From NCBI GenBank assembly GCA_964593885.1, contig CAZQKK010000002.1, positions 11,997-75,996 of the forward strand: a stretch of DNA of 64,000 bases. Reading direction: 5' to 3'. Every line of letters starts with the position of its first letter. The first letter of the stretch is position 1. Source of the stretch: an uncultured Candidatus Saccharibacteria bacterium. GTDB lineage: Bacteria > Patescibacteriota > UBA1384 > CAILIB01. Below, piece after piece: positions 3,101 to 60,816 of this stretch. The translations under genes were made by a program, and so were the position numbers. The notes under the pieces were generated by a model. It saw only the letters and a program-made list of their open reading frames with translations. It made no database searches and was not told the DNA's origin.

Positions 3101-3448
3101 ATGAAATCACTTCAAGATCTTCAGGATATGGTCGTTAAGCTTAGGGATGAGCGAGACTGGAAGCAATTCCATAACCCAAAGGACTTAGCCCTTACACTTA
3201 CCCTTGAAGCCACAGAAGTTTTGGAGCATTTTCAGTGGAAAACAAACGAAGAGTCTTTTGATCACATAAAAAAGAACAAACAAAAAGTTGCACACGAACT
3301 TGCTGACGTACTATATTCTGTTTTGCTCATGGCAAATGATTTTGATATTGATCTTGCAGAATCTTTCCTAGAGAAAATTGAAGAAATTTCAAAAAAGTAC
3401 CCTGTAGAGAAGTCAAGAGGAAATCATAAAAAATATACTGAGCTATGA
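3101..3448 (+). CDS. MazG-like nucleotide pyrophosphohydrolase (small all-alpha NTP-PPase)
   Basis: 115 aa with the EATEVLEHF and HELADVLY E-x-x-E/D helical motifs typical of the MazG/HisE superfamily. AT-rich relative to flanks. Its stop overlaps the next start (ATGA). Confidence 0.75.
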   Translation: MKSLQDLQDMVVKLRDERDWKQFHNPKDLALTLTLEATEVLEHFQWKTNEESFDHIKKNKQKVAHELADVLYSVLLMANDFDIDLAESFLEKIEEISKKYPVEKSRGNHKKYTEL

Positions 3449-5367
3449 TTGTTTATCAAGCTACAAAGCAATCTTTCCATCACGATATTCTCACTCACAG
3501 AATTGAGAAGATTGTTGCTAATGAGTTACTAAAAAAGACTGGAAAGCATGTGGGAGATGCAGAGGTGAGGTCATGGAAAGAATCGCTTGGCTACATGAGC
3601 AATGTGCTTTTGGATAACGATATTCCAAACGATGTTGGTATTGCCATTGAGTACCACATACCTCAAACCACCAAACGGATCGACTTTATTCTCACTGGTC
3701 AGAATGAGCATAATATTGACCATGCAATTCTTGTTGAGTTAAAGCAATGGTCGTCGGCAAAGCTGAGCGACCGAGATGGTGTGGTGTATACGTATGTTGG
3801 CGGAGGAGAGCGTGATATGAGCCACCCCTCATATCAGGCATGGTCATATGCTGCACTCCTTGAAGGATTTAATGAAACGGTTTACCAGGAAAACGTCCAG
3901 CTTAAGCCTTGTGCGTATTTGCACAACTATGAAGAGGATGAGGTTATCCGTAGTGATTTCTATCAAGAGTACCTAGATAAGGCACCGGCGTTTCTTGCTG
4001 GTGATGACGAGACAGAGAAGTTGAGAGATTTTATAAAAAGATACGTAAAGCGCGGGGATGTCTCGAATATTATGTATCGCATTGAGTGCGGTAGGATCCG
4101 CCCTTCAAAAGCTCTTGTGGATAGCCTTGTATCAATGCTTGATGGAAATGATGAGTTTGTCCTTGTTGATGATCAAAAGACAGTATTTGAGGAAGCAAGA
4201 TCACTAGTGCTTAATGCTTCAGATGATAATAAAAAAGTTCTCATTGTAGAGGGAGGGCCAGGAACAGGAAAAACACTTGTTGCTGTGAACCTTTTGGTAA
4301 AGGCCACAGCTGAAAACCTAGTTGCGCTTTATGTTACAAAAAACGCTGCGCCAAGAGCGGTCTATGAAAGCTTACTCACAAAGAGTCCCAGAAAAAGTGT
4401 ATACACATCTCTTTTCTCTGGCTCAGGTGCCTTTACCCAATCAAAGGAAAATGAGTTTGATGTCTTGATTGTTGATGAGGCGCACAGACTCAATGAAAAG
4501 TCTGGAATGTATAAGAACCTAGGTGAAAACCAGGTGAAAGAAATTATTACTGCTGCAAAATGTTCAATCTTCTTTATTGATGAAGATCAGCGTGTGACGT
4601 GGGGAGATATTGGAACAAAAGAAGAAATCATCAAATGGGCAAGGCAATGTGGAGCTGAGGTTGTCGAGAAAAACCTTTCATCACAGTTTAGGTGTAATGG
4701 TTCTGATGGTTACCTTGCATGGCTTGATGATGTTCTCCAAGTTAGAGAAACGGCAAACTACACTCTTGAAGAAGGTCAGTATGATTTTCAAGTTTTTTCA
4801 GACCCAAACGAACTTCGTAGAGCGATTCAACTTAATAATGTTGATAGAAATAAATCTCGTTTAGTTGCTGGCTACTGTTGGGAATGGGCAACTAAGTCTG
4901 GAAAAGCTGAATATGATGTCGTGTTGCCTGAGTATGATTTCAAAATGAAATGGAACCTTGCCAGTGACGGTAGTCTCTGGATAGTAGGAAAGAATTCAGT
5001 TAATGAAGTTGGCTGCATTCATACCTGCCAAGGTCTTGAGTTAGATTATGTAGGGGTGATTATTGGCGATGACTTTGTTGTGAGAGATGGTGAGGTTGTC
5101 ACAAATCCATCGGCTAGAGCACGTAGCGATAAATCACTTTCTGGATATGTGAAGGCCTCAAAGGATAGCCCAGAAGAATCATCTCAAAAAGCTGATCTTA
5201 TTATTAAGAATACCTACCGCACGCTCATGACGCGTGGGATGAAGGGTTGCTACGTTTACTGCACTGATAAAGAAACTGAAGATTACTTTAGAGAACGTCT
5301 CACACAGGTAGCTCATCTTTCTGGAAGCGAGATTGAAGGATTTGAAGATGAATTGGAGATTGCATAA
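3445..5367 (+). CDS. DUF2075 / Schlafen-group-3-like protein: N-terminal PD-(D/E)xK-like nuclease motif fused to SF1-type helicase ATPase
   Basis: N-terminus has IEYHIP...KRIDFIL...ILVELKQW (an E...D...ELK restriction-endonuclease-like signature). Walker A is GGPGTGKT. Walker B/DEAH-like is LIVDEAHRL. Motif VI-like is CIHTCQGLELDYVGVII. 640 aa, low GC. Confidence 0.8.
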   Translation: MIVYQATKQSFHHDILTHRIEKIVANELLKKTGKHVGDAEVRSWKESLGYMSNVLLDNDIPNDVGIAIEYHIPQTTKRIDFILTGQNEHNIDHAILVELKQWSSAKLSDRDGVVYTYVGGGERDMSHPSYQAWSYAALLEGFNETVYQENVQLKPCAYLHNYEEDEVIRSDFYQEYLDKAPAFLAGDDETEKLRDFIKRYVKRGDVSNIMYRIECGRIRPSKALVDSLVSMLDGNDEFVLVDDQKTVFEEARSLVLNASDDNKKVLIVEGGPGTGKTLVAVNLLVKATAENLVALYVTKNAAPRAVYESLLTKSPRKSVYTSLFSGSGAFTQSKENEFDVLIVDEAHRLNEKSGMYKNLGENQVKEIITAAKCSIFFIDEDQRVTWGDIGTKEEIIKWARQCGAEVVEKNLSSQFRCNGSDGYLAWLDDVLQVRETANYTLEEGQYDFQVFSDPNELRRAIQLNNVDRNKSRLVAGYCWEWATKSGKAEYDVVLPEYDFKMKWNLASDGSLWIVGKNSVNEVGCIHTCQGLELDYVGVIIGDDFVVRDGEVVTNPSARARSDKSLSGYVKASKDSPEESSQKADLIIKNTYRTLMTRGMKGCYVYCTDKETEDYFRERLTQVAHLSGSEIEGFEDELEIA

Positions 5368-5369
5368 CA

Positions 5370-5723
5370 ATGAATGCGAAACCATTACTCATAGCTGGTA
5401 GCGTCTCCCTTCTATCTGTAGCAGCTTTTGCCGCAGGTATGGAATCTCCAGAGGTTGCAGAAAGGTTGGGTAGTTCTCCGCAGATTACTTCAACAATTCC
5501 AGCTACTAACACACCAAAAGCGACTTCTGCTCCAACGCCTAAACCCACTGAGAGTAGCAAAGCTACTACATCAAATTGTGATTCGAACTACAGTCCCTGT
5601 ATTCCTAAGGTGAGTTATGACCTTGATTGTGGGGATATTGGAAAATTTGTGTACGTTATTGGTGTTGATGTACATGGATTTGACAGAGATGGGGATGGAG
5701 AAGGATGTGAGAGCTACAAATGA
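5370..5723 (+). CDS. secreted Excalibur (extracellular calcium-binding) domain protein
   Basis: N-terminal signal peptide, a Thr/Pro/Ser-rich linker, and a C-terminal DCGDIG...DRDGDGEGCE motif matching the Excalibur DxDxDGxxCE signature. Confidence 0.75.
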   Translation: MNAKPLLIAGSVSLLSVAAFAAGMESPEVAERLGSSPQITSTIPATNTPKATSAPTPKPTESSKATTSNCDSNYSPCIPKVSYDLDCGDIGKFVYVIGVDVHGFDRDGDGEGCESYK

Positions 5724-7392: not shown

Positions 7393-7421
7393 ATTGACAA
7401 ATAGGGGTATTTGTGCTAAAA
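7393..7421 (+). promoter_or_regulatory. sigma70-type promoter (TTGACA-17-TAAAAT)
   Basis: cattGACAaataggggtatttgtgcTAAAATcc gives a perfect -35 and a near-consensus -10 with a 17-nt spacer, about 40 nt upstream of the 7458 ORF. Confidence 0.6.
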
Positions 7422-7457
7422 TCCCAGCGTTCTCAAATCAGGTAGCGCTCATTGTGA

Positions 7458-7904
7458 GTGACCAAAGTTGAGGTGGCTAGCATGACAAGTTTAGTAGAAC
7501 CAATTGACGTCTCGTTGGTAAAAGACGACTTCCCCAACCTGAAGCTCGTAGAGCTTCCTGACTTTCCTGGGATCGTCTTCGTGAACTATGGTGAGGTTGT
7601 CACTTCGAAAGAGGTTACCAATACCATGATCACGATGAAGCTCCACTCTCCCGATTTGCCTGAGATGCTCATGCAGCAGGCCTTCGAGAGGAAGCCGCCG
7701 CTCCATGAACTGCCCGACTTCAACAGTGCTCCGGTTGTCCTCATTGCAAACCGAGTGCCAGGTCAGTATTGGTCGGTGAATGAGGAGTGGCTCAACATTG
7801 CTACTTGCGCTGAAGAGTTCCGCATTCACCTTTGGCTCGCTGACTCCGGCGATGAGTATGAGGGGAACTACTGGTTCCTGGCAGTGCCAAGTACAACTAG
7901 CTAG
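7458..7904 (+). CDS. hypothetical protein
   Basis: 148-aa ORF downstream of a strong promoter. No recognisable domain. An alternative start MTSLVEP lies at 7482. Confidence 0.5.
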   Translation: MTKVEVASMTSLVEPIDVSLVKDDFPNLKLVELPDFPGIVFVNYGEVVTSKEVTNTMITMKLHSPDLPEMLMQQAFERKPPLHELPDFNSAPVVLIANRVPGQYWSVNEEWLNIATCAEEFRIHLWLADSGDEYEGNYWFLAVPSTTS

Positions 7905-8075
7905 CTCCTCTCAGCAAATGTTTCGGCTCTCACCTTGTGTGAGGGCCATTTTTGTAGCTGTAATGGTTGACAAAAATGGATTTTTTCCCTACAGTCGCGG
8001 TACCTTTCGCCCCGCTCAATTGCCACTCGCACCGCCAACATTGCGGGGAGCGAAAGGTACTCGGTCATTAACATC

Positions 8076-8942
8076 ATGCCTAGTGAAACTATCGGAACAC
8101 ACAAGAAAACGTTTGCGGCGCATACCGCTCGTTTGCTTGCAAGTGAACCCTTCTCCACCGGAGTTGGGTCCCTGCTCATAGTACTTCCTTCCATCATCTT
8201 ACTAAGCCAGCGCTGTGCGCAGTGCCGAACAGCAAGTGTGGTGCAGGGACTGGTACTTCCTCTGGTGGGAATTGCATTTGGCTTGCTCATGCTTGCCAGT
8301 GCAGTTGCGCCAAAAGTGAGGTTGGTAATCTCGGTTGCAAATGCTTGTCTCGTACTAGCGGGCCTCATAAGCCCACTTGTGCTTGGCACCTTGCTCCTTG
8401 GGTACCACCCGTGCACGTACTGTATCATCGTCTGGTTTGGGGTTATCGCGCTTTTTGCGGGGATGCCTCTGGACGAAAGTCGTGCTAGCAAGCTGAGGTT
8501 GGTTTGGACCTGCTGCGCGGTTCTCACGCTCATTGTGTGGGGAGTGCCAGCTACTAACCTTGAGGCTAAGCGCCTCCTGATCGCGGCGGGACTCAGTACC
8601 ACCGCCACAGAGAACGGACCAACGGTTGGAAGTGTCGCTCCAATGGAGCCATCACTTCCTAGTACAGTAACGGTTGTCTTCTGGACGCAGTGCCCATGTC
8701 CACTGCCCCAGCTGCAAGAAGCGCTCAGAGCGCTCAACCAAAAAGGTGTCGTGCCGGTAATCATTACTACCGTGCGCGTTCCCGAAATGAAGGCTTGGGC
8801 TCCCCGGAGCTCGGTACTCATAGTTGATGACAGCGTCTTCCAGCAATGGGGGGTGGATCGTCACCAGACACACGTGGTGGTTAGGATTGAGGGTGGCATT
8901 GTCGTCACCAGCAACCCTGCCAGCCAGGTCAAAAGTAAATGA
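8076..8942 (+). CDS. VKOR/DsbB-like polytopic membrane thiol oxidoreductase with C-terminal thioredoxin-like soluble domain
   Basis: Four to five TM helices. A loop Cys pair CAQC sits after TM1 and a CTYC sits at the start of a TM helix, matching the VKOR active-site arrangement. The C-terminal domain carries a FWTQCPCP Cys motif. The exact start is uncertain. Confidence 0.55.
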   Translation: MPSETIGTHKKTFAAHTARLLASEPFSTGVGSLLIVLPSIILLSQRCAQCRTASVVQGLVLPLVGIAFGLLMLASAVAPKVRLVISVANACLVLAGLISPLVLGTLLLGYHPCTYCIIVWFGVIALFAGMPLDESRASKLRLVWTCCAVLTLIVWGVPATNLEAKRLLIAAGLSTTATENGPTVGSVAPMEPSLPSTVTVVFWTQCPCPLPQLQEALRALNQKGVVPVIITTVRVPEMKAWAPRSSVLIVDDSVFQQWGVDRHQTHVVVRIEGGIVVTSNPASQVKSK

Positions 8943-9544
8943 AACGGTTACCATACCTGAGAACTAGGTTGGGATTCACGATGGTTGAGGTCATCGTGGT
9001 AATTCTGATCATCGCCGTTCTCGCTGCTATCATCTTTCCTGTTGTCAGTTCCACTAGGGAACAGGCACGGAAAACAGACACCTCAGCAAGGCTCCACCAG
9101 GTTGCACAGGCCATTTCACTCTACCAAGATGAAAATGACCAGAGCTTGCCACCTCGGTTGAGTAGCCTGTCCTTGAAGCCTGAAATGCTTCGTTGCTCCA
9201 AGAGTGGGTATACGTTCTACTACCCGTTGAACTACTCCTTCCTCCAGCGCTACGGCAATCGCAAGGAAATTGCTCCCGAGTTTGAGCCAAGTCAGAACGC
9301 TGCTGTTAAGGCGATGTTCTGGCACACCTTCAACTGTGGGATGGCAAACAAGAACTGTGATGTCAAAACGCACGTGGTGGATGGGGTAAATTACACGTAC
9401 ACCATTCCACGCATGACGGAAGATACACCAAGTACCTACAAGGTGCTCGGCGTGAGGCTGGATGGGAGCGTTGGCGAATTCCCGGTCCTCGAAGACTGGG
9501 AGAAAAACCACCTTGAAGAGGGTGGCGTAGGGAAAGACAAATGA
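8939..9544 (+). CDS. type IV pilin-like protein (prepilin N-terminal methylation/cleavage motif)
   Basis: A basic leader is followed by G|FTMVEVIVVILIIAVLAAIIFPV: a class III signal peptide with Glu at +5 and a hydrophobic helix. The globular domain has 4 Cys. Start overlaps the previous stop. Confidence 0.8.
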   Translation: MKRLPYLRTRLGFTMVEVIVVILIIAVLAAIIFPVVSSTREQARKTDTSARLHQVAQAISLYQDENDQSLPPRLSSLSLKPEMLRCSKSGYTFYYPLNYSFLQRYGNRKEIAPEFEPSQNAAVKAMFWHTFNCGMANKNCDVKTHVVDGVNYTYTIPRMTEDTPSTYKVLGVRLDGSVGEFPVLEDWEKNHLEEGGVGKDK

Positions 9545-9978
9545 AACGAATACACATGTTAGCTCTGGGTTGCATTTTTACCCTTGCAACCCTTGCATTC
9601 GCAGATGACGGTTCGTGCTGGAAACGAGCACGACCTATCTGCCCCGACGGTGTCTCAGACGAGAATGGTGCTCGATGTGGCGCGAAGTCCGTCATTGTAG
9701 TCAGTCCTGACGCAGAGCGCGCGTTGGACAAGTTCTGCAGCGGCCACTCTCGCAACTGCAGCAATAGCGGTAAATCGTGCAACCAGCGATGGCTGATGGA
9801 CGCAATGTGGCGCAGGGTATCCTGCGTCAACCAGCAAACCGGCGCTAGCACCCCTCTTGGGTGGTGCTTAGACTACCAGATCAGCAACAAAGCCCTCAAC
9901 GAGGACTGCTCTGGAAATCCCTGCCGAAAGAGTGTGGTGGAAGCTGAACCAGCTGAGCCACCCGCTGGTACCCAGTAA
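9541..9978 (+). CDS. secreted cysteine-rich protein (about 10 Cys in mature part)
   Basis: Sec-type signal peptide MKRIHMLALGCIFTLATLAFA. The mature region has many Cys. Translationally coupled to the pilin gene. Confidence 0.6.
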   Translation: MKRIHMLALGCIFTLATLAFADDGSCWKRARPICPDGVSDENGARCGAKSVIVVSPDAERALDKFCSGHSRNCSNSGKSCNQRWLMDAMWRRVSCVNQQTGASTPLGWCLDYQISNKALNEDCSGNPCRKSVVEAEPAEPPAGTQ

Positions 9979-10025
9979 CCTCGAATCCTCCTGTATCAAC
10001 AGGGGGATTTTTTTGTGGGGGGTTT

Positions 10026-10685
10026 CTAGACCTCGCTGAAAAAAGCTTTACCACCCTCTAGTAGTTCCATTACCTCTCCAAACCCGGGGCATCGCTCATC
10101 TGTGGGGATTTCGCCCAACGTGCCCCAGAAGCACTCACCTAGGGCGGCTTCCTGGATGATTTCGCCGCTGTATTCAAGAGAAAACACGTGGGACTCCATG
10201 TGGTTGAGGAGTACGTCGCCCTCAAAGCTCCTAATAAAGATGGTACCGCGGTATTCTAGGTCTTCAGTGGCTGCCGTGATGCCGGTTTTCTCGTCAAGCT
10301 CCCTCACGGCTGCGGCGAAGATACTCTCGCCCAGGTGTACCTTGCCGTAGGGGAGGCTGACCTTCCCGAGGAATGGCTGCTTATTCCACCTGAAGAGCAC
10401 GTACTGCCCCTCGGCGTTTTTCACAGAAAGCATGGTGGTGACTTTGGGCTGCTCGCGTTTCTCGCCGGTGGAAGTACTCATCGTTCCGACAAACCGCCTA
10501 CCCTCGGTGCTGAGCGCGTAACCGCCATCAACCTTCTCCACGAGGCCTGCCGCCATGAGAGATTTCAGGTGGTAGGTGTGGAGGTTGCCGTCAACGTCGT
10601 CGGGCTGCAGCTCTGAGTACCTCAAATGAGCCGCCAGGGCGAGGCGACGAAGGATTTCACGTTGATTTAATGGAAGGTGTGACAT
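10026..10685 (-). CDS. winged-helix DNA-binding domain fused to NUDIX hydrolase domain (NrtR-like regulator/hydrolase)
   Basis: N-terminal wHTH-like region (REILRRLALAAHLRYSEL...LKSLMAAGLVEKV). C-terminal Nudix box GKVHLGESIFAAAVRELDEKTGI. Confidence 0.7.
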   Translation of the reverse strand: MSHLPLNQREILRRLALAAHLRYSELQPDDVDGNLHTYHLKSLMAAGLVEKVDGGYALSTEGRRFVGTMSTSTGEKREQPKVTTMLSVKNAEGQYVLFRWNKQPFLGKVSLPYGKVHLGESIFAAAVRELDEKTGITAATEDLEYRGTIFIRSFEGDVLLNHMESHVFSLEYSGEIIQEAALGECFWGTLGEIPTDERCPGFGEVMELLEGGKAFFSEV

Positions 10686-11150: not shown

Positions 11151-11885
11151 TTACCTAACCATTTCTAAAAGGCTCTTCTCCAACCTAGTTGCCCCAAGCC
11201 AGTTGTTCTCAACGGTGAAGGTTTGGAATGTCTTGTCTAGGCCACTGATGATTGCCAGCCCCACAAGAATGAGGAGCACGGCGAGGCTTTTCCTAAACCA
11301 CCCATTTGGGTTGGCCGTCCAGGCGAGTTTCTTGGTGAGATTTCTTCCAGCAAGTGAAATCGCCAACAATGCTGAAGCGAGCCCCAGCGCATAGAAACAA
11401 ATGTAGATGAAACCGAGGGCGAAGTTTGAAGGTAGCACCGTTGCTAGCACCAACCCGTACACCGGGCTGCAGCTTGAGAACACTGGCCCCAGCGAGGCGC
11501 CGGTGAGTACCTGTCCAAGCACCCCCGTGCGGTGGGAGGCATTCTCAAGGAGCTTGTTGCTCTGGGATTCAAGGCCAAGCTTGAGGGCAATACTGGTCCA
11601 GAGGTTAGGGAAGAGCATGCTCAATCCAAGGATCAGGACGATACCCCCAGAGATGGTTAGCCAGACCTGCAGATCAACACCAATCAGCGAGGTTGAGGCC
11701 TTGAGGATGAGGGTGAAGACGGTAACTGATACGGCGAGGCTGAGCGCAATGACGTACGGTTTGCGCGGGTCTTCTCGCTCCCCGGGAGCTACCGAGGTGC
11801 CCACAATCACCGGCAAGAGCGGCAGGACGCAGGGTGCGAGGGAGGTGAGAACTCCAGCCAGGAACGAGGTTACCAGGAGCAACAT
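11151..11885 (-). CDS. ccdA: cytochrome c-type biogenesis / thiol-disulfide transporter CcdA (DsbD transmembrane domain family)
   Basis: Six TM helices with conserved Cys in TM1 (LAPCVLPLLP) and TM4 (FSSCSPVY). Confidence 0.8.
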   Translation of the reverse strand: MLLLVTSFLAGVLTSLAPCVLPLLPVIVGTSVAPGEREDPRKPYVIALSLAVSVTVFTLILKASTSLIGVDLQVWLTISGGIVLILGLSMLFPNLWTSIALKLGLESQSNKLLENASHRTGVLGQVLTGASLGPVFSSCSPVYGLVLATVLPSNFALGFIYICFYALGLASALLAISLAGRNLTKKLAWTANPNGWFRKSLAVLLILVGLAIISGLDKTFQTFTVENNWLGATRLEKSLLEMVR

Positions 11886-11900
11886 TGCGGTTGCTGGCGG

Positions 11901-12446
11901 CTAGTTAGTCTGGGTGGTGAGCTCGGCGTAGCTGGTGGAGCCGCTCCACTTCTTGATCAGGTTGCCACTTGCGTCCACCTGGACGAAGGTGTGCTGGTAG
12001 GTGACACCGTACTTTTTCTTGAGCTCGGTGGCGCTGTCGTAGTCAACTTTGAGGAGGGTGAGGCCGCCTGGTGGAGTGTTGGCATTGAAGGCAATGTTTG
12101 CCTCTTTGCAGGTTGGGCACCACGGGGCACTGAAGAAGAGGACAACGTCGCTGGTTGAGGCATTTGCTAGTTTTGCGGAGTCGTAGTCTGTAAAGATGCC
12201 GGCAGCCTTAGGGGAGGACTCAGTGGTAGCACTTGGGGTGGTAGTTGGGGAAGCGGTGGTGCTAGCAACCTTGGTATCTGTGGTTTTTTTGCTGGTAGCG
12301 ATAACGTAGCCGCCGCCAACGATAAGGAGGATGGCAATGGCGCCAAGGGTGATTTTTGAGTTCACAATTGCGTTTACGAGTAGAGCCCCAGTGTAGCAGA
12401 AAGACCGGCATTGGCGGTCGGTCGAAACCCTATACAAAAAACCCAC
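11901..12446 (-). CDS. membrane-anchored TlpA/ResA-like thioredoxin-fold thiol-disulfide oxidoreductase
   Basis: WCPTC active site, N-terminal TM anchor and a Thr/Ser-rich linker. The tracked GTG start at 12446 lies inside a terminator hairpin, so the true start is probably downstream (about 12380). Confidence 0.7.
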   Translation of the reverse strand: MGFLYRVSTDRQCRSFCYTGALLVNAIVNSKITLGAIAILLIVGGGYVIATSKKTTDTKVASTTASPTTTPSATTESSPKAAGIFTDYDSAKLANASTSDVVLFFSAPWCPTCKEANIAFNANTPPGGLTLLKVDYDSATELKKKYGVTYQHTFVQVDASGNLIKKWSGSTSYAELTTQTN

Positions 12447-24457: not shown

Positions 24458-24486
24458 AACCACCTTCACCGAGGGTGGTTTTTTCT
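24458..24486 (+). terminator. rho-independent terminator (AACCACCTTCACCGAGGGTGGTT + TTTTCT)
   Basis: Perfect 8-bp stem and a T-run. The T-run overlaps the stop of the convergent heliorhodopsin gene. Confidence 0.7.
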
Positions 24487-25241
24487 TACGGCCTCAATGT
24501 GCCGGCGAATACCTGCCAAGCCAAGAGTGACTTCGCTACTAAGCTCAAGATGATGTACGCGCGCTCACCGTAGAGGTAGTCCTTCCACTTGCCAACCTTC
24601 TTGTACTGGAGCCACATGTTGATAGCGAAGGTGTTAAAGAAGATGAAGATTGAGACAAAGATCCAGTAGACAAAGGTAGGGGCACTACTGCCGTTAGCCG
24701 ATCCTGTCCAGAGGTAGAGGGCAACCACCACCCATGGAAGGGCACCGAGAATGCAGCCAATCCAGTACGAGAGCCAGTCGGTGGTCTTGGTGGTCTGGTT
24801 GTGTACCTCCATCACGAGACCCATGAGGTTCATACCTGCGGTGAGGCCAAATATCATGATAAGGCTGCTCACATCGTAGATGCCTACCAGGAGCGAGATA
24901 GCCACCATCATCACACTTGCCGACAGGGAGTACTCAAACCAGCGCGCCTTGTTCATCCCTTTTGCAAGGTTTGCCTCGTAGGTTTTGCGGTAAGTTGTTG
25001 CAATCACCAGGTGGAAGATTGCTGACAAGCAGAAGAAACCTGCAATGAGGGTTGGGAGTGACAGGTTGAAGGCAGCTGCTGTAGCGGGCTCAAGCGTCTG
25101 GCTACTCGGGTTGAACTTCAGGAAGCTGTTGGTGAGGGGGAGCGAAAAACTCTTACTGAGGGCAATGACTGCCAAGCCTTGGAGGGCGTGGAGCAAGCTC
25201 ATCACCAAGTTGAAGTTCTTGAGTTTAGTAAACTTATCCAT
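24486..25241 (-). CDS. heliorhodopsin (7-TM retinal-binding protein with inverted topology)
   Basis: 251 aa. Blocks RWFEYSLSASVMMVAISLL, IFGLTAG and YLYGERAYIILSLVAKSLLAWQVFAGTLRP align closely to the reference heliorhodopsin 48C12 (RWVEYSLSSSVMIVLIAQI...YLRGERAYIVLSLVAKSALAWQIFSGTLIP). The Schiff-base Lys (SLVAKS) is present in TM7. Confidence 0.85.
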   Translation of the reverse strand: MDKFTKLKNFNLVMSLLHALQGLAVIALSKSFSLPLTNSFLKFNPSSQTLEPATAAAFNLSLPTLIAGFFCLSAIFHLVIATTYRKTYEANLAKGMNKARWFEYSLSASVMMVAISLLVGIYDVSSLIMIFGLTAGMNLMGLVMEVHNQTTKTTDWLSYWIGCILGALPWVVVALYLWTGSANGSSAPTFVYWIFVSIFIFFNTFAINMWLQYKKVGKWKDYLYGERAYIILSLVAKSLLAWQVFAGTLRP

Positions 25242-42522: not shown

Positions 42523-42927
42523 ATGGCTACCATTCTCCTCGTAGAAGATGATGCAACCCTCGCTGACATGTACCAGCTGATGCTCCAGATGAAGGGGCAC
42601 ACGGTGCTGGTATCTCACAACGGACAGGATGCCATTGTCCAGGCAAAAGCTTCAAAGCCAGATGCCATCCTCTTAGACATGATGATGCCGGTGCTCAACG
42701 GCATTGAGACCCTGAAGCAAATGAAGGCACTACCTGAGCTCAACGATATTCCCGTAGCGATGCTCAGCAACCTCGCCGACGACCAGCAAGCTGAGATTGC
42801 GATGCTCACTGGAGCAACCAAGTACGTCATCAAGAGCAACTGCACTGCAGATAGCCTGCATGATCTGGTTTTTGGTATGCTACAGAAGAAGGTTCCTCAC
42901 ACCGCCCCAAATCAACCACCGGCCTAA
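42523..42927 (+). CDS. single-domain response regulator (CheY-like receiver only)
   Basis: DD acidic pocket, phospho-acceptor Asp in LLDMMMP and conserved Lys in YVIKS. No output domain. Confidence 0.85.
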   Translation: MATILLVEDDATLADMYQLMLQMKGHTVLVSHNGQDAIVQAKASKPDAILLDMMMPVLNGIETLKQMKALPELNDIPVAMLSNLADDQQAEIAMLTGATKYVIKSNCTADSLHDLVFGMLQKKVPHTAPNQPPA

Positions 42928-42938
42928 ATCTTTGCTCC

Positions 42939-45900
42939 CCATGCCTGAAAAAGACGCCACACACGTTGTTGCTACTGATTGGAATGCCAAAATGGTGAAT
43001 TGGTTCACCAAGAATACCTACGTAGCCCTCCTCCTCTTCATCGGTCTCATCCTTGCAGGTACCGGAGCACTTCTTTCACTTAGGCGAGAAGGCTTTCCTT
43101 CACCGGACATTAACGTTGCGGTAATTACCACTGTCTACCGAGGTGCCAGTCCAACAGCGGTTGAGCAGCAGATTGTGAAGCCTATTGAGGCGGCAATCTC
43201 GGGTGTGGCAGGAGTCTCCGAGGTTACCTCGCAGGCTGCCAACAGTTTTGGCACGGTAAGTGTTAGCTTCAAAGCTGGCACAGACTTCGCCTCGGGCCTC
43301 TCCGAGTTGAGGACTGAGGTGCAGAGCTTAGTTTTACCAAGTGATGCTGACCAACCTGAAATCATCGTCCCAAGTTTTGGTGGTAACATTTCCTACTACG
43401 CTGTAGCTGGCGAAGGCGAGCCTGCGGCCTTGAGATCAATTGGTGATGAGATTAGGAAAGACCTCGAGGCAGTTTCCGGGGTGAAGAGCTTCAAGCTCCT
43501 CTCGGGGGTTAAGGACACCCTTACCATTGCGTGGAAAGGTTCAGAGCTTGCCAAGTTTGGGCTAACCCCACAAGACATCCAGAATTCCCTCCAGGCAAAC
43601 AACCTCACCATTCCAGCTGGCACCCTCCCAATTCAAGGTGTAGATACCAGTGTTGTAACCTCAGCAAACCTTACCAGCGCCAACCAGGTTAGCGAGATGA
43701 CGGTAAAGCTGGTGAATGGCAAGGCTATCAAGGTGAGCGATGTTGCTACGGTAACCCCAGGCTACGACTACGATTCGCTCATGAACAGCGTTGGTTTTAA
43801 AGGGGTTGATGATGCTAGCGGGAGCCTCGTCAAGAAATCTGCTCTCATCTACGCACTTGAGTACGAGGACGATGTTGATGTCTTGAGAACCAACGCTAAG
43901 GTTGAGGAAGTTCTCTCCTCAAACCGTGAAAAGCTTGCCGCAGGAAACCACCTCGTTACCCTGAGCGATGTTGCAGAAGCCACCCGTGACCAGATCACGG
44001 AGATTGAAGAGGGTGCGATTGGTGGCGCCATAGGTGATGGTCCTTTCAAGAACCTCGGCTACATCCTTGGTGGTATCTGGTTGATCATGCTAGCGATGCT
44101 CCTGCTGGTGAGCTGGAGGGCAGCCCTCATTTCTACCCTTGCCATTCCGCTTTCGCTCCTCTTCACTTTCCTTTCGCTTCAGATCCTTGGGGTTACCCTC
44201 AACACCCTGACGCTCTTTTCGATGGTTCTGGTTCTCGGTCTCATCGTAGACCCCGCCATTGTGGTGCTTGAGGCTATTCAACGTGAACTTGACCTTGGGA
44301 AGCGTGGGAGAGATGCGGTTACGGCGGCAATGAACACCATTGGTACCGGCGTCTTTGTGGCAGTACTCACCAGCATCATTGTCTTCGTGCCATTTGGTGT
44401 CGTATCAGGGATCTTCGGCGAAATCATCAAGTACATTCCACTCACCATTATCCCAGCCCTCCTAGCCTCGTACTTCATTCCGGTGTTCTTTCTCACCTGG
44501 GCAGCTCAGCGCTGGCTGAGGCCTTCACGCCTTGCCAGAGACGATGAAGCCATTGGTAACCTTTGGAAGCTGGCACAGTGGTTCATCAAAACTAACACCT
44601 CCATCCTTAAGCGCCCAGTGCTCCAGGTGGTGATTATCGTTGCGGCAGTAGTGCTCCCACTTGGGGTGACAGGCTACCTCTTCGCTACCAAGGGAGTAGT
44701 TCCGGTGCAGTTCTCAGCTCCGGTTGATGCAGACTCAATGACCGTAAGGCTAGACTACCCTGGAAACTTCACAGAAGGACAGAAGCAAGAGGTTATCGCC
44801 AAGGTGGAAGAGGTGCTCCTGGGAGAAAAGACCATCCAGCGCTACTTCCCATTCAGCCAAGATGGAGTGATGACTATCTCAGCGTGGTTCCTACCTCGTT
44901 CGCTCCGAGATACCGACAGTCCAGCCATTGTGGAAAGGGTCAACGAGAAGTTCAAGAAGATTGAGAACCCAGACAAACGTATCTTCGTGACTGCTGGTGC
45001 CGACAGCGTTGGTACCCCACAAAATCAGTACCCGGTTGCGGTGAACATCTTTGACGACTCACTTGAAGACCTTAAGGCAGCTGCAATCAAGACAGGTGAG
45101 ATTCTGCGCGAGCAGCCAAACGTAACCCGGGTTGAAGATGGCTTTACGGGACGAAACAACAGCCAGCTTGAGGTGGTACTCAACCGTGAGAAGCTCAACT
45201 CTCTTGGCCTTCCAGCTATTGCTGTTGCTCAAACCCTAGCCGGGGTGATTGGCGAGTCTGAGGTGAGCAAGTTTGAAAGGGAAGTTGACGGAGACGTCAG
45301 AACCGTTGAGGTACTCCTCACCAATGCCTCAAAGCCTACCGATAAGGCAGCGGTGGCTGGAACGGTACTCTTGGCCACCCCTCAAGGAGTGGTGAAGGTT
45401 TCAGATGTTGCAACGGTTCAGGAAGTGAATGGCTTTGCGGGCATTCAGCGTCTCAACGGCAGCAGGTTTGTTACCGTACAGGCAAAGGTGGTAGACGAGC
45501 TCAAAGATGCAGCAGCTCCCCAGCAGGCAGTAAAGGATTTCTGGACGAAGGATAAACTTGCGGAATTCAACCTGAGAGAAGATGCCCTCGAGAGCCGGGG
45601 AAGCGGGGATGAGTTCATTAAGAGCTTCCAAGATCTCTTCATCGCCCTTGGGGTTGCCATTCTCCTTCTCTACGTTACCCTCGTTATCTTCCTGAAGAGC
45701 TTCAGTCAGCCTTTCATCATCCTCTTTGCAGTTCCGCTCACCTTCCTAGGAGTCTTCCCTGCACTCACCTTGGTGGGAGGACAATTTGGCTTCCTTGAGA
45801 TCCTTGGAATTATTACCCTCTCGGGGATTGTGGTAAACGTAGGTATCTTCCTGATTGACCTCGCCAACCAGAAACGTGCCGAAGGTATGGATTACAAACA

Positions 45901-46150
45901 AGCCATTGCTGAGGCAAGTGGAATTAGGTTCAGACCAATCATCCTCACAAAGCTGACGACACTTGGAGGACTACTGCCGCTCATCCTGCTCAGCCCATTC
46001 TGGCAGAGCTTGGCAACCGTGGTTACGGCAGGCGTCCTTGTAAGTGGCTTCCTTTCGCTCTTCACCACGCCAATTCTCTACAGCTGGTTTGTGGGAGGTA
46101 AGCTCAGGGTGGTAAAGGGAATTCAGGCTCGGCGTGCGGTAAGGCGCTAG
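42939..46150 (+). CDS. RND superfamily efflux transporter (AcrB/HAE-type, 12 TM with two large external loops)
   Basis: About 1070 aa with the typical RND repeat architecture and length. The ATG at 42939 is preferred because the tracked start overlaps the response regulator. No adjacent membrane fusion protein or outer membrane factor gene. Confidence 0.85.
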
Positions 46151-48016: not shown

Positions 48017-49207
48017 TTACGCCCTACCCTCTAGGTAGTGCCTGACCATCATGGCGGCGGTAGCTCCTTCGCCTACAGCTGCTGCAACCTGCATGGTGGC
48101 GCCGGCACGGCAGTCTCCGGCGGCAAACACACCAGGAATGGTGGTTTGGAGGGTCTTGTCTGTCTCAATGAAACCAGCCTTGTTTCTGGTGATGGTTTCA
48201 GGAAGCCAGCTGGTTTGGGGGGTGAGGCCAACAAAAACAAAAACACCTTCGCCACTTACGGTTGTAATTTCACCAGTATCGCGGTGCTCCATCCGGATGC
48301 CGGTAACGCGGTCATCCTCAGAGGTGATTTCTAGGGTTTTCTGGTTGAAGTAGCTGGTAACCTTATTGCCAATCTTCTTGAGTTTTGCCTGGAGGGTTTG
48401 GCTAGCGCTGAAGATTGGCTCAAAGCTCACAATGTGGACGTGTGAGGCAAACTGGGTGAGGAAGAGAGATTCTTGGAGTGCCGAGTTTCCTCCTCCAATC
48501 ACGATAACTTCCTTGCCACGGTAGAAAGGTCCGTCGCAGGTGGCACAGTTGTGAACACCTCTCCCGCTAAACTCAGCTTCCCCAGGAACGTTGAGCTGAC
48601 GGTACTTGGTCCCAAGGGCGAGGATTACAGACTTTGCCCTAACTTCGCCACTGCTCGTGGTGATGCCAATGTAGCCTGGAGTTTCCTGGTGGATGGTGGT
48701 TACCTCTTCACCAGCCTTAATATCGGTACCAAACTTCATCGCTTGGTTTCCCATGTGCTGCATGAGCTCAAACCCAGAGATGGGTTCCTCAAAGCCAGGG
48801 TAGTTCTCAATGGCCGAGGTAATAATCGCTTGTCCGCCAACTCCAACCTTGTCAAAGACAACCGTTTTGAGCTGCTCTCGTGAGCAGTAGATGGCGGCAG
48901 TGAGTCCCGCTGGACCAGCTCCAATGATGGCAACATCGCAGGTTTTGGCATCAGTAGGAGCATCCTGGTCTCCAAGGGCGGCGGTGAGAACCTCGGTGCT
49001 TGGACAGATGAGTACTTCACCGTTAGCTAGAATGACTACAGGAATCTCATCGCTCCCGCCTGCGCTTACTGAGGCTTCTGAGAGGTGCTTCTCGCTAGCA
49101 TCAACGTTAACAAACTTGTAATCAAGGTGCTGAGACGAGAGGTAGTCGGTAACCCTCGTGCAGTCTGGGCACCATCGCGCCCCGTAGACGATGATGGGAT
49201 CAGCCAT
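48017..49207 (-). CDS. trxB: thioredoxin-disulfide reductase with N-terminal glutaredoxin/NrdH-like CPDC domain fusion
   Basis: N-terminal 85 aa: IIVYGARWCPDCTRVTDYL. Then a FAD-binding GAGPAGLTAA motif, the redox-active CATCDG and NADPH-binding GGGNSA, as in TrxR. Confidence 0.85.
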   Translation of the reverse strand: MADPIIVYGARWCPDCTRVTDYLSSQHLDYKFVNVDASEKHLSEASVSAGGSDEIPVVILANGEVLICPSTEVLTAALGDQDAPTDAKTCDVAIIGAGPAGLTAAIYCSREQLKTVVFDKVGVGGQAIITSAIENYPGFEEPISGFELMQHMGNQAMKFGTDIKAGEEVTTIHQETPGYIGITTSSGEVRAKSVILALGTKYRQLNVPGEAEFSGRGVHNCATCDGPFYRGKEVIVIGGGNSALQESLFLTQFASHVHIVSFEPIFSASQTLQAKLKKIGNKVTSYFNQKTLEITSEDDRVTGIRMEHRDTGEITTVSGEGVFVFVGLTPQTSWLPETITRNKAGFIETDKTLQTTIPGVFAAGDCRAGATMQVAAAVGEGATAAMMVRHYLEGRA

Positions 49208-51119: not shown

Positions 51120-51716
51120 TTAGTACCTGCTGTTGTAGCTATTGCCACCGCCGAAACGGTCGCCGCCACGGTCGTCACGACTTCCGCCGCGATCATCGCG
51201 TGAACGTGGCTGCTGTGGGCGAGCTACGTTAACGGTGATTGTGCGTCCATCGATTTCCTTCTCGTGGAACATCTCGATAGCTGCCTGAGCTTCTTCATCT
51301 GTGCCCATCTCTACAAAACCAATACCACGGGACTTGCCCATGTCATTGAGAGGGATTTTGACAGACATAACGGTTCCGGCCTGGCTGAAAGCCTCACGGA
51401 GACCATCTTCAGTTGTTGACCATGCGAGGCTACCAACGAAGAGCTTCTTGTTGTTGACTGCGCCTGCGGCTGGAGCCTGACCGGCTTCATTTACGCGGAG
51501 AACGCGGCCATCAACTTCAGCGTTGTTGAACATCTGAATAGCGGCCTGAGCCTCTTCATCAGTGCTCATTTCAATAAAACCAAAACCACGGGACTTGCCC
51601 ATGTCATTCATCGGGATCTGTGACGAAGTAACTGTACCAGCCTTGCTAAATGCTTCTTGAAGTGAAGCTTCTGTTGTTCCCCAAGAGAGGTTTCCAACGT
51701 AGAGTTTGTTTCCCAT
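51120..51716 (-). CDS. RNA-binding protein with two tandem RRM domains and C-terminal RGG/RDD tail
   Basis: RNP2 (LYVGNLSW / LFVGSLAW) and RNP1 (KSRGFGFIEM / KSRGIGFVEM) each occur twice. The two RRMs are about 65% identical to each other. The tail is RDDRGGSRDDRGGDRFGGG. Confidence 0.85.
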   Translation of the reverse strand: MGNKLYVGNLSWGTTEASLQEAFSKAGTVTSSQIPMNDMGKSRGFGFIEMSTDEEAQAAIQMFNNAEVDGRVLRVNEAGQAPAAGAVNNKKLFVGSLAWSTTEDGLREAFSQAGTVMSVKIPLNDMGKSRGIGFVEMGTDEEAQAAIEMFHEKEIDGRTITVNVARPQQPRSRDDRGGSRDDRGGDRFGGGNSYNSRY

Positions 51717-60165: not shown

Positions 60166-60816
60166 ATGAAATTTGCTATCGCAGGAATGATTGCATTTTG
60201 TGTGTTGCTCATTGGCGGTGCTGTCTTTTTTGCAACTCGTCCTGAAGCTCCTCAGGTGAGAACCATCCCTATGAGCGAACAGTACACCAAGCGGGTTGAG
60301 GAAGGTTCATGGGTGAAGGGTGCAGCCAACGCTACAGTCACCATCACCGAGTACGCTGACTACCAGTGTCCAGGGTGTGCTGGGATGGCACCTATCATCA
60401 CTGAGGTGCTCTCAAAGACTGACTTCGTGAAGCTTGAGTACCGTAACTACCCACTCACCCAGCACAACAAGGCTCGCCTTGCAGCGCGTGCCGCTGAGGC
60501 TGCAGGGAGACAGGGAAAGTACTGGGACATGCACGGGGTACTGTTTGCAAACCAGTCTAGCTGGGAGAACCTTTCACTTGCAGTCTTTAGGGATACCGTA
60601 AAGGATTACGCTAAGAACCTCGGACTCAACGCTGAGCAGTTTGTGGCAGACCTTGATGATAAGACCATTGATGATCAGGTCAACAAGGATATTACCGAGG
60701 GAAACAAAGTGCCGGTAACCGGAACCCCAACCATTTCAATCAATGGCAAGAAGCTTGAGACACTCCCAAAGAGTGCTGATGAATTCATTTCGCTACTCCA
60801 GGCTGCAAAACAGTAG
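60166..60816 (+). CDS. DsbA-like thioredoxin-fold thiol-disulfide oxidoreductase (membrane anchored)
   Basis: N-terminal TM plus a YQCPGCAG CxxC active site in a thioredoxin-like domain. Confidence 0.8.
   Translation: MKFAIAGMIAFCVLLIGGAVFFATRPEAPQVRTIPMSEQYTKRVEEGSWVKGAANATVTITEYADYQCPGCAGMAPIITEVLSKTDFVKLEYRNYPLTQHNKARLAARAAEAAGRQGKYWDMHGVLFANQSSWENLSLAVFRDTVKDYAKNLGLNAEQFVADLDDKTIDDQVNKDITEGNKVPVTGTPTISINGKKLETLPKSADEFISLLQAAKQ

Follow-up and report, generated by a model that had tools for sequence, protein, structure and literature searches.

To our knowledge, only a few bacterial membrane enzyme families make disulfides de novo, namely DsbB, VKOR and, as a recent addition, MauE. In Bacillus subtilis, the competence pseudopilin ComGC depends on BdbCD for its disulfide, and client-dedicated Dsb pairs are represented by DsbL/DsbI with AssT in uropathogenic E. 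coli and by BdbA/BdbB in the SP-beta sublancin operon. In VKOR-thioredoxin fusions (PF07884; Synechococcus VKOR, PDB 3KP9/4NV5; the cyanobacterial L011-L016), five transmembrane (TM) helices are joined to an extracytoplasmic thioredoxin-like domain and, as in the Chroococcidiopsis protein, a loop Cys pair, the TM4 CxxC and the thioredoxin pair make up a three-pair relay. The VKOR signature itself consists of a CxxC where TM4 ends on the extracytoplasmic side (Cys132/Cys135, human numbering) and of Cys43/Cys51 in a long TM1-TM2 cap loop, followed by a conserved Ser/Thr (Ser57) (PMC4555120). According to a recent proposal, MauE generates disulfides as a general system and uses CXC as its active site (bioRxiv 10.64898/2026.03.05.709764).

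In the 64-kb stretch of DNA analysed here (the window), we read an operon on the plus strand (7967-10016) as a self-contained oxidative-folding cassette with a Cys-rich client, an interpretation to which we assign a probability of roughly 0.55. It encodes a 288-aa membrane thiol-disulfide oxidoreductase with five TM helices and a C-terminal thioredoxin-fold domain (8076..8942), a 201-aa prepilin-type protein (8939..9544) and a 145-aa Sec-secreted Cys-rich protein (9541..9978), joined by 4-nt ATGA overlaps indicative of translational coupling. The original prediction had placed three coupled genes at these positions, and its ORF coordinates proved exact. The three genes are real and under purifying selection, with dN/dS values against a 73 % orthologue of 0.30 for the enzyme, 0.16 for the pilin and 0.20 for the Cys-rich protein. 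Across relatives, the enzyme gene was immediately followed by the prepilin gene in 11/11 lineages, and in all nine lineages whose contig extends far enough the third gene encodes a protein that has a signal peptide and repeats the 10-Cys pattern, while the flanks of the cassette otherwise differed between distant lineages. Since the trio recurs in 11 independent lineages and shows these dN/dS values, the arrangement is not a product of chance, and a conserved, co-transcribed module of enzyme, pilin and Cys-rich genes is supported. The cassette is a rare, unannotated three-gene operon: the enzyme family, which is covered by no Pfam or NCBIfam model, numbers 28 cluster representatives in a set of 1.84 billion proteins. 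Relatives originate from a MAG labelled Patescibacteria and from groundwater, in a 0.1 µm fraction.

The operon has its own conserved promoter and terminator, with a promoter-like TTGACA-17-TACAGT site at 7967..7995 (10/12 matches in a consensus scan) and an intrinsic-terminator-like hairpin with a T-run at 9983..10016, in which a 12-pair stem is followed by TTTTTGTGGGG. The original prediction had instead taken a strong TTGACA-17-TAAAAT promoter and a hypothetical ORF as the lead-in of the cluster. Both exist, the ORF (orfA, 7458-7904, plus strand) exactly where it had been placed and the promoter at 7394-7422 (11/12 matches, with TG), but this promoter drives the unrelated orfA. Between orfA and the operon lie a terminator-like hairpin (7925-7947) with a T-run and then the second promoter-like site. 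At the 73 % orthologous locus L017, orfA is missing and the operon promoter is kept almost base for base, directly after metK, which sets orfA and the 7394-7422 promoter outside the module.

We next turn to the enzyme, for which an AF2 model (pLDDT 89) placed helices at residues 26-43, 55-77, 82-108, 114-128 and 135-156. A Cys pair, C47-A-Q-C50 (CAQC; 8214..8225), lies in the TM1-TM2 outer loop of about 10 residues, and a CxxC with a Trp at +4, C113-T-Y-C116-I-I-V-W120 (8412..8435, with CTYC at 8412-8423), caps TM4 on its outer side, where helix 114-128 begins; the TM3-TM4 loop measures about 5 residues. In the family alignment of 29 members, the only invariant residues were the six Cys and W120, with C47 present in 93 % of members, and most members have a Pro before C113. 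The predicted polytopic protein with CAQC and CTYC motifs was thus borne out, as was the conservation of its Cys positions among homologues, with both pairs predicted on the outer face. Mean K+R counts of 2.9 at the N-terminus and 2.4 in the TM4-5 loop, compared with 0.75 and 0.36 in the Cys-bearing loops, favour an N-in, C-out topology. In this orientation all Cys would face outward, so no electrons would arrive from the cytoplasm via a Cys relay. We propose C113/C116 as the putative quinone-facing centre.

The C-terminal soluble domain with a Cys motif, also part of the original prediction, turned out to be a genuine thioredoxin fold. Residues ~190-288 (8643..8939) were modelled with a pLDDT above 90 over most of their length, and Foldseek against the PDB returned TlpA/ResA/CcmG-type proteins (8t4c FetE, E 4.9e-3; 3gl3 DsbE; 3k8n CcmG; 2h19 ResA) with probabilities of 0.99-1.0 and E values from 5e-3 to 6e-2; the window enzyme gave no Pfam thioredoxin match. 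Counting against the oxidative-folding reading, these nearest structural neighbours (ResA, CcmG, TlpA-like) act as reductants in their own pathways. The active-site motif of the window enzyme, C206-P-C208 (8691..8699), is a CxC in place of the thioredoxin CxxC, with both Cys invariant in the family. The motif takes the form C-x-C-P in six close members, whose cis-Pro loop also bears a conserved His, and C-x-x-C in 23 distant ones, which keep the canonical C-P-x-C with a cis-Pro loop. The cis-Pro itself is present in 27/29 members; the window enzyme has Q-T-H, with Thr in its place, a loss that likewise speaks against the favoured reading.

How this enzyme relates to VKOR is a separate question. 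The window enzyme had no Pfam, NCBIfam or PDB sequence match, and no Pfam VKOR (PF07884) match even at E <= 1. The distant family member P0031, which sits in the same type of three-gene cassette, reached 26.8 bits (E 6.4e-6, model positions 6-130 of 134) against a gathering score of 27.5 bits, and its best PDB match was VKOR-like, the CxxC motifs of the two being aligned. With P0031 left out of the family HMM, its TM domain scored 35.4 bits, a value reached by 0/1000 block and 0/1000 residue shuffles. Across the family, Pfam VKOR was touched at E <= 1 by 3/29 members, Pfam DsbB, MauE and DsbD_TM by 0/29, and there was one marginal match each to NCBIfam DsbB (E 0.12) and DoxX_2 (E 0.12). Aligning the family to the VKOR profile with hhalign gave a full-length, co-linear match with three Cys pairs in register, at a score of 23.9 that 35/150 block-shuffled controls also reached (reversed profile, 22.2). 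The VKOR profile was small and missed P0031 too, so that this comparison has little power. Foldseek matched the enzyme in its thioredoxin domain only; for the membrane domain it returned neither VKOR nor DsbB.

Taken feature by feature, the TM4-end CxxC of VKOR is present, whereas the window enzyme does not match the VKOR family model and its TM1-TM2 Cys pair is not set in a long cap loop with Ser57; no conserved Ser/Thr column follows this pair in the 29 members. In VKOR, the cap loop is about 35 residues long and contains Cx6-7C along with the signature Ser, compared with a CxxC in the short loop here. The layout of a VKOR-thioredoxin fusion is found, with helix 135-156 leading into a thioredoxin fold over residues 198-288 with CxC (CxxC in 23 members), and the five TM helices, extracytoplasmic domain and three Cys pairs correspond to those of the fusions. 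Distinct from them are the invariant Trp at CxxC+4, the TlpA/ResA-like thioredoxin domain (with C-x-C-P in the window clade) and the constant placement of the gene within an operon for a pilin and a Cys-rich protein. Not one of the 29 members matched DsbD/CcdA (PF02683), a family marked by six or more TM helices with single Cys inside TM1 and TM4. In its membrane part the enzyme shows CxxC motifs, not the CXC expected for MauE (PF07291)/DoxX. Hence, of the VKOR/DsbB-like arrangement initially proposed, the layout stands but sequence similarity of the window enzyme does not, with P0031 as the one bridge; kinship to VKOR is only indirect, and homology is presumed. Of the findings that would have refuted the original prediction, a lack of VKOR/DsbB similarity applies to the window enzyme itself; unconserved Cys positions and a missing prepilin consensus do not.

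The second gene product belongs to the type IV pilins or pseudopilins, with a short basic leader, Gly at -1, a hydrophobic alpha-1 and Glu at +5. Its cleavage motif, MKRLPYLRTRLG|FTMVE (leader 8939-8974; G|FTMVE 8972-8989), is kept at 11/11 orthologous positions, as had been anticipated, and the protein scored above the cutoffs of Pfam N_methyl PF07963 (23.9 versus 21.2 bits) and TIGR02532 (24.7 versus 16.3 bits). The N-terminal helices of GspG (E 7.7e-11) and ComGC matched residues 12-68, and the PDB gave pilin alpha-1 matches as well. The globular domain of about 130 aa, ending L-D-G-S/H-V ... E-D-W-E, matched nothing. The class III signal peptide, Glu5 and alpha-1 helix are those of GspG/ComGC pseudopilins and DUF1559 proteins (PF07596); for DUF1559, alpha-1 matched the first 30-40 positions in relatives. 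The window pilin is far shorter than DUF1559 proteins, and it has a novel globular domain and no adjacent assembly genes in the window. No prepilin peptidase or PilB/PilC-type gene was found in the 64 kb (48 ORFs of at least 130 aa and 3 shorter ones near the operon), and relatives have machinery genes within about 3 kb, a T2SSE gene in L005 and a T2SSF gene in L007. The assignment as a prepilin-type pilin therefore holds, but the predicted four Cys are three (C86, C133, C140), which are common to window-clade pilins. Between orthologues, pilin Cys vary from 0 to 4, with none in L019, two in L008 and three at other positions in L010.

The third protein, predicted to have a signal peptide and about 10 Cys, has both: a Sec-type signal peptide (9541-9603, AFA|DD) with one Cys, and a mature part with 10 Cys, all of them conserved (alignments A3, A8, A10). 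The Cys lie 7-19 residues from each other, none of them in CxC or CxxC clusters, and the protein had no Pfam, NCBIfam or PDB match. Its signal peptide being Sec and not prepilin, the suggestion that it is a minor pilin falls away, and that of a tip adhesin stays hypothetical. The view of a disulfide-containing pilin as the focus of the cluster likewise gives way, because pilin Cys are not conserved and one orthologue has none, which leaves the Cys-rich protein as the conserved candidate client. We consider it most likely that this protein is the private client of the enzyme. The dedicated oxidative-folding module of the original prediction is partly supported.

In the mechanism we favour, the enzyme would be inserted N-in and C-out with five TM helices, presenting its three Cys pairs on the outer face. 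The thioredoxin domain would draw electrons from the Cys of the co-encoded Sec-secreted protein, whose 10 Cys could form five disulfides, with the pilin Cx6C pair as a possible second target in the window clade. By analogy with the relay logic of bacterial VKOR-thioredoxin fusions, electrons may then pass from the thioredoxin domain via C47/C50 and C113/C116 to a lipid-soluble acceptor, presumably a quinone. Counting against a quinone acceptor, Patescibacteria-type and 0.1 µm-filtrate organisms usually lack quinone synthesis. The folded Cys-rich protein probably associates with the co-translated prepilin-type protein, which would be processed by a peptidase encoded elsewhere and either join a type IV filament or stay membrane-anchored as a pseudopilin.

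The thioredoxin domain could also point to the opposite chemistry, with a general DsbA-like oxidase making the disulfides and the cassette enzyme shuffling or reducing wrong ones with quinol electrons. The best structural matches are indeed reductases (ResA, CcmG, DsbE, FetE), CxC motifs are effective disulfide-isomerase mimics, a five-disulfide protein plausibly needs proofreading, and other disulfide genes are at hand: a DsbA-like protein in the window (60166-60816) and a canonical VKOR in L019, 4.5 kb from the cassette. We nevertheless regard such a reductase or isomerase as unlikely, given that CcdA/DsbD pathways take cytoplasmic electrons via intramembrane Cys whereas the Cys of the cassette enzyme all lie on the outer face, that no member matches DsbD_TM, and that the window already encodes a CcdA and thioredoxin-like pair (11151-12446; CcdA 11151-11885, Pfam match 5e-14). 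Moreover, a membrane relay of two pairs with a helix-cap CxxC as its end point corresponds to the oxidase design of DsbB and VKOR. The same coexistence with a DsbA-like protein and a canonical VKOR speaks for a dedicated enzyme and against a housekeeping generator that would replace DsbB/VKOR in the lineage and have incidental neighbours. A general membrane oxidase could be expected to look like this, with a DsbA-like domain of its own attached, but strict three-gene synteny across distant lineages with differing flanks, and the extreme rarity of the family, make this role very improbable.

That the pilin is the main client and the Cys-rich protein an accessory, as in BdbCD-ComGC or MdbA/VKOR with actinobacterial pilins, appears improbable. 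In every lineage the pilin gene lies right next to the enzyme gene, window-clade pilins share their three Cys, and DsbA-like/VKOR folding of type IV pilins has been proposed for CPR bacteria (PMC6744442); yet it is the 10-Cys pattern of the third protein, and not the pilin Cys, that is kept. Most remote of all seems a role in metal handling, in which the outward CxxC pairs and CxC-P plus His would bind Cu or Zn like Sco/SenC to load or detoxify metal for the Cys-rich protein. The active site of the six closest members, together with the lost cis-Pro of the window enzyme, fits this idea, and Sco proteins are thioredoxin folds using Cys2His, but the 23 distant members have a redox C-P-x-C and cis-Pro and no His, the client has its Cys spaced like those of a disulfide-knotted domain rather than a metal cluster, and no metal-transport genes are linked.

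A more far-reaching variant, which we hold to be doubtful, is that the enzyme, with its two helix-cap CxxC centres and tethered thioredoxin domain, founds an unrecognised disulfide-generating family. Beside DsbB, VKOR and MauE, this family would be no more than a very distant offshoot of VKOR, and the enzyme would serve as private foldase for a five-disulfide protein docking on a type IV pilin-like subunit. These bacteria being ultra-small and probably quinone-auxotrophic, the acceptor would then be non-standard or host-derived, and one clade would have remodelled its thioredoxin domain to C-x-C-P plus His, without cis-Pro in the window enzyme.

Set beside the other known systems, the proposed oxidative-folding cassette shares with DsbB/BdbC (PF02600) the helix bundle, P-C-x-x-C at a helix cap, a second outward Cys pair and the link to a type IV pseudopilin. 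Both also have a functionally important residue at +4, Arg48 in E. coli DsbB and Trp in the cassette enzyme. In DsbB, however, TM1 and TM2 flank the quinone-reactive CxxC, a long TM3-TM4 loop carries the second pair, and no thioredoxin domain is fused. MauE/MauD likewise combine a membrane protein with a thioredoxin-like partner, CXC chemistry and one disulfide-rich client (historically, the methylamine dehydrogenase small subunit), whereas the cassette enzyme has its CxC in the soluble thioredoxin domain and two CxxC in the membrane part, with both functions in one polypeptide. Client-dedicated Dsb pairs also place a specialised oxidoreductase beside its disulfide client with a general system in the genome, but are separate, canonical DsbA/DsbB homologues with unrelated clients. 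MdbA/VKOR of Actinomyces and Corynebacterium and the MdbA-like/VKOR pairs of CPR bacteria (PMC6744442) are the same kind of monoderm oxidative-folding machine proposed for pilus proteins; they serve sortase pili or general type IV pilins through a canonical VKOR and a separate DsbA-like protein, and the description of the MdbA-like and VKOR pairs contains no conserved three-gene cassette (PMC6744442).

The cassette would thus add a rare design to the de novo disulfide generators, and with enzyme and probable client co-encoded, their pairing is directly testable. The natural switch from CxxC to CxC-P in a thioredoxin fold that has lost its cis-Pro offers a ready-made active-site tuning experiment. 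The cassette is found in lineages that carry the label Patescibacteria or come from 0.1 µm filtrates, in which surface filaments and adhesins mediate host attachment; with quinone synthesis usually missing, client and electron acceptor could both inform on the cell-surface biology of episymbionts. In public gene calls, the leader peptide of the pilin is cut off and all three genes are labelled 'hypothetical'.

Gene 1, which encodes a membrane protein (8076-8942, 288 aa), a prepilin-type gene (8939-9544, 201 aa) and a gene for a Cys-rich protein with a signal peptide (9541-9978, 145 aa) lie on the forward strand and are joined by ATGA overlaps, confirming the coupling claimed in the original prediction; a 12-pair hairpin with a T-run (9983-10016) is found 3' of the last gene. 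The promoter-like site at 7394-7422, which had been assigned to the trio, is real, but it drives the next gene, orfA (7458-7904, forward strand), an ORF of 148 aa without a family match, whereas the trio has its own site, TTGACA-17-TACAGT, at 7967-7995. A terminator-like hairpin (7925-7947) separates orfA from this second site. At L017, an orthologous locus whose proteins are 73-83% identical to their counterparts in the window, the operon directly follows metK, orfA is absent and the 7967-7995 promoter is kept almost base for base, which points to a transcription unit spanning 7967-10016 and to orfA as a probable lineage-specific insertion. Given this absence, the intervening hairpin and the second promoter, orfA and the 7394-7422 site were rejected as parts of the module. 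The orfA promoter resembles that of the operon as if copied from it, suggesting an insertion that duplicated the promoter, and a better orfA start may be the ATG at 7482, preceded by GAGGTG.

Comparison with L017 yielded dN/dS values of 0.30 for gene 1, 0.16 for the pilin gene and 0.20 for the Cys-rich protein gene. A reverse-strand ORF antisense to gene 1 (7901-8821, 306 aa) was dismissed as a shadow ORF, because the forward-strand product is the conserved one. We also considered a horizontally acquired island; the GC content of the operon (0.51-0.56) matches its surroundings. Public gene calls place the pilin start 14 codons late (187 aa, MVEV...; 8939-8980 in the window, 10861-10903 in L017), which drops the prepilin leader and cleavage site, while the longer ORF with its ATGA overlap is kept in the orthologue.

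The gene 1 family is rare and unannotated. Three members came out of a word-indexed search of 5.8 billion proteins, and an exhaustive search of 1.84 billion cluster representatives with a HMMER profile gave 28 matches at E <= 1e-3, all 207-315 aa long and nearly all matched over most of their length (one, P0034, is a fragment truncated at the N-terminus). The window protein could not be assigned to a family directly, with no matching model in Pfam or NCBIfam and no PDB sequence match for either the full or the TM-only profile. Genomic context was available for eleven lineages (the window; L017/L018; L001/L002/L004; L005/L006; L021; L019; L007; L008; L020; L010; L009). In all eleven, a prepilin-type gene lies immediately downstream of the enzyme gene, mostly overlapping it, and encodes a class III signal peptide, in which the leader is short and basic, residue -1 is G or A and residue +5 is Glu, so that the predicted cleavage consensus is borne out in the alignment. 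Where the contig continues (9/9 lineages), the product of the third gene has a signal peptide and the same pattern of ten Cys; in L009, this gene is interrupted by the contig end. Because the genes on either side vary from lineage to lineage, the three genes themselves form the unit, and scanning a metagenome with the Cys-rich protein returned one more locus, again within the cassette. The sources of relatives include a MAG labelled Patescibacteria and a 0.1 um groundwater fraction, and the L010 contig carries planctomycete-type cytochrome genes.

A T2SSE ATPase in L005 and a T2SSF platform protein in L007 are encoded within ~3 kb of the cassette. No pilus machinery was detected among the window ORFs scanned (48 of at least 130 aa and three shorter ones near the operon), and the only gene with a prepilin motif in the 64 kb is that of the cassette itself. 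The Pam-type CPR pilus proved unrelated, and full-text literature searches returned no description of a cassette of this kind.

The pilin leader MKRLPYLRTRLG, followed by FTMVE, is present, and the N-terminal helix is typical: it aligns with GspG (E 7.7e-11), with ComGC and with the alpha-1 helices of pilins of solved structure, and the helices of relatives additionally align with the opening 30-40 positions of DUF1559. The globular domain (~130 aa, ending L-D-G-S/H-V ... E-D-W-E) matched nothing. Its cysteines, expected to number four and central to the earlier emphasis on a disulfide-containing pilin, count three in the window clade (C86, C133 and C140), zero in L019 and two in L008, and occupy other positions in L010. 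The third protein, predicted to hold about ten Cys, has eleven; apart from one in the signal peptide, all lie in the mature part, and these ten are kept everywhere, spaced 4-19 residues apart. Conservation at its N-terminus includes the segment DDGSCWKPxRPxCPxGVS. It matched nothing in Pfam, NCBIfam or PDB. Its proposed role as a minor pilin was discarded, as was a reading as a lipoprotein, because the signal-peptide Cys is not conserved, a signal-peptidase I site (AFA|DD) is, and there is no prepilin motif. Set against the variable pilin cysteines, this conservation suggests that the enzyme's conserved client is most plausibly the Cys-rich protein, with five disulfides, and that the Cx6C pair of the pilin is most plausibly a clade-specific extra. 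The tight translational coupling suggests that the two proteins act together; one option would be a filament-tip or membrane-anchored complex.

The CAQC (residues 47-50) and CTYC (113-116) motifs named in the original prediction are present in the gene 1 protein, and the Cys motif expected in its C-terminal domain is a CPC (206-208). In the 29-sequence alignment, C50, C113, C116, W120, C206 and C208 are the only invariant residues, and C47 occurs in 93% of sequences, in line with the expected conservation among homologues. The first pair is a C-x-x-C in the TM1-TM2 loop of ~10 residues, and the second, (P)-C-x-x-C-x-x-(F/V/I)-W, caps the outer end of TM4. The third is a thioredoxin active site, which in 23 distant members has the canonical C-x-x-C (often C-P-x-C) and a cis-Pro loop reading G-x-P. 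The window protein (C-P-C at 8691-8699) belongs to the six closest members, which instead carry C-x-C-P and, directly following the cis-Pro position, a His. The loop reads L/Q-P-H in four of these and G-x-P in the remaining family; the window protein (residues 264-266, nt 8865-8873) and its nearest relative have lost the cis-Pro and read Q-T-H.

An AlphaFold2 model built on this alignment (pLDDT 89, pTM 0.73) predicts five TM helices (26-43, 55-77, 82-108, 114-128, 135-156), a linker helix and an alpha/beta domain (198-288); an earlier model from three sequences reached a pLDDT of 53, and its fold matches were discarded. Foldseek assigned the C-terminal domain to the thioredoxin fold of the TlpA/ResA/CcmG/DsbE type (8t4c, 3gl3, 3k8n and 2h19; probability 0.99-1.0, E 5e-3 to 6e-2) and found no match for the TM domain. 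Lys and Arg are dense in the N-terminus and the TM4-TM5 loop and sparse in the two Cys-bearing loops, which argues for an N-in, C-out topology that would place all three Cys pairs and the thioredoxin domain outside the cytoplasm.

This architecture, with five TM helices, a loop pair, a CxxC at TM4 and a C-terminal thioredoxin domain, is that of bacterial VKOR-Trx fusions, for which one from a Chroococcidiopsis plasmid served as comparison. The VKOR/DsbB-like claim is supported by this architecture and by a transitive link through P0031, a distant family member, but direct evidence is weak, and the window protein itself matched neither Pfam VKOR nor Pfam DsbB. P0031 is encoded in the same three-gene cassette, and against a TM-HMM of the family from which it was left out, its TM domain reaches 35.4 bits, a value attained by 0/1000 block shuffles and 0/1000 residue shuffles. 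It aligns to positions 6-130 of the 134 in Pfam VKOR (E 6.4e-6, 26.8 bits, just below the threshold of 27.5), and its best PDB match, a VKOR-like protein, aligns at the CxxC. Across the family, 3/29 members touch Pfam VKOR at E <= 1 and none touches the Pfam models for DsbB, MauE or DsbD_TM, so assignment of the TM domain to DsbB, MauE/DoxX or DsbD/CcdA was rejected. When P0031 and the TM-only profile were used as queries in word-indexed homologue searches, no bridging protein annotated as VKOR came up.

Direct profile comparison did not strengthen the case. An hhalign alignment to ten VKOR sequences (cyanobacterial fusions, human VKORC1, fugu VKORL, a Synechococcus fragment and the canonical L019 VKOR) was full-length and co-linear with the three Cys pairs in register, but its score of 23.9 was matched by 35/150 block-shuffled controls and nearly reached by the reversed profile, and is not counted; the test has little power, as the small VKOR profile also misses P0031. 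Overall, comparisons with human VKORC1 alone, one cyanobacterial VKOR-Trx and the ten-sequence alignment were co-linear but scored no better than block-shuffled or reversed controls. The VKOR signature of Cys43, Cys51, Ser57, Cys132 and Cys135 (PMC4555120) is kept only in part: the loop pair of gene 1 is a CxxC in a very short loop, and there is no conserved Ser column. On the tests run, the protein is not classifiable as a VKOR family member; we put the probability that it is a very divergent offshoot of the VKOR superfamily at about 0.65, and read it as likely to work like a VKOR-Trx fusion.

With all six cysteines on the outer face, as predicted, there would be no Cys relay from a cytoplasmic thioredoxin as in DsbD/CcdA, so that the exchange partner for electrons would be either a cofactor soluble in the membrane or a further exoplasmic protein. 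Best supported is a scheme of the VKOR/DsbB type, in which electrons would pass from client thiols to C206/C208 of the thioredoxin domain, on to C47/C50, then to C113/C116 and finally to quinone. In DsbB and human VKOR, Arg48 and Tyr139, respectively, face the quinone from the position that the invariant Trp at CxxC+4 occupies here. The ResA/CcmG-like fold, the CxC motif and the presence of a separate DsbA suggest an isomerase or reductase, and metal binding is possible in the C-x-C-P clade with its additional His. However, both are disfavoured by the membrane relay of two outward pairs, by the canonical redox motif kept in most family members and by the Cys spacing of the client. The enzyme appears dedicated rather than housekeeping, because the window also encodes a DsbA-like protein and a CcdA/thioredoxin-like pair, and L019 a canonical VKOR.

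A specialized Dsb-type enzyme encoded beside its client is a known idea, as in MauE/MauD with methylamine dehydrogenase, DsbL/DsbI with AssT, BdbA/BdbB with sublancin and BdbCD with ComGC. Three elements are new: an enzyme family marked by a short CxxC loop, an invariant Trp and a thioredoxin variant with CxC-P; a family of 10-Cys proteins; and the strict association of both with a prepilin-type gene. MdbA/VKOR serving pilins has been proposed for CPR bacteria (PMC6744442).

Further redox genes were noted. The DsbA-like protein (60166-60816, forward strand; Thioredoxin_4 E 5e-27, DSBA E 7e-16) probably serves the organism as its general extracytoplasmic thiol oxidase, and no membrane partner for it was found in the window. 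A CcdA/DsbD_TM protein and a membrane-anchored thioredoxin-like protein (11151-12446, reverse strand), a reducing pathway, lie just downstream of the cassette; the pair was rejected as part of the module, as the two genes sit beside the cassette in the window and L017 alone and not in L001, L005, L007, L010, L019 or L021. Likewise, a wHTH-Nudix protein just downstream (10026-10685, reverse strand) adjoins the cassette in these two lineages only. At 48017-49207 (reverse strand), a glutaredoxin domain is fused to a thioredoxin-reductase-like pyridine-nucleotide disulfide oxidoreductase. The canonical VKOR of L019 (136 aa, single-domain, PF07884) and a sortase (641-1051 and 1948-2592) lie 3-5 kb from its cassette.

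Upstream of metK, a low-GC stretch (3445-5700; 0.40 versus 0.55) contains a Schlafen-group-3 helicase (3445-5367), and the same site in L017 (2937-8517) holds a SLFN_AlbA_2 protein and an AlwI-type restriction-modification pair; it looks like a variable defence island. A full-length heliorhodopsin gene (24486-25241, reverse strand; PF18761, E 8e-99) fits the envelope assumed for the cassette host, as heliorhodopsins have been reported from monoderm bacteria. Finally, a protein with two eukaryote-type RRM_1 domains (51120-51716, reverse strand; E 1e-40) and an AcrB-type RND transporter (42797-46150, forward strand; 1117 aa) are unusual if the host genome is really very reduced.
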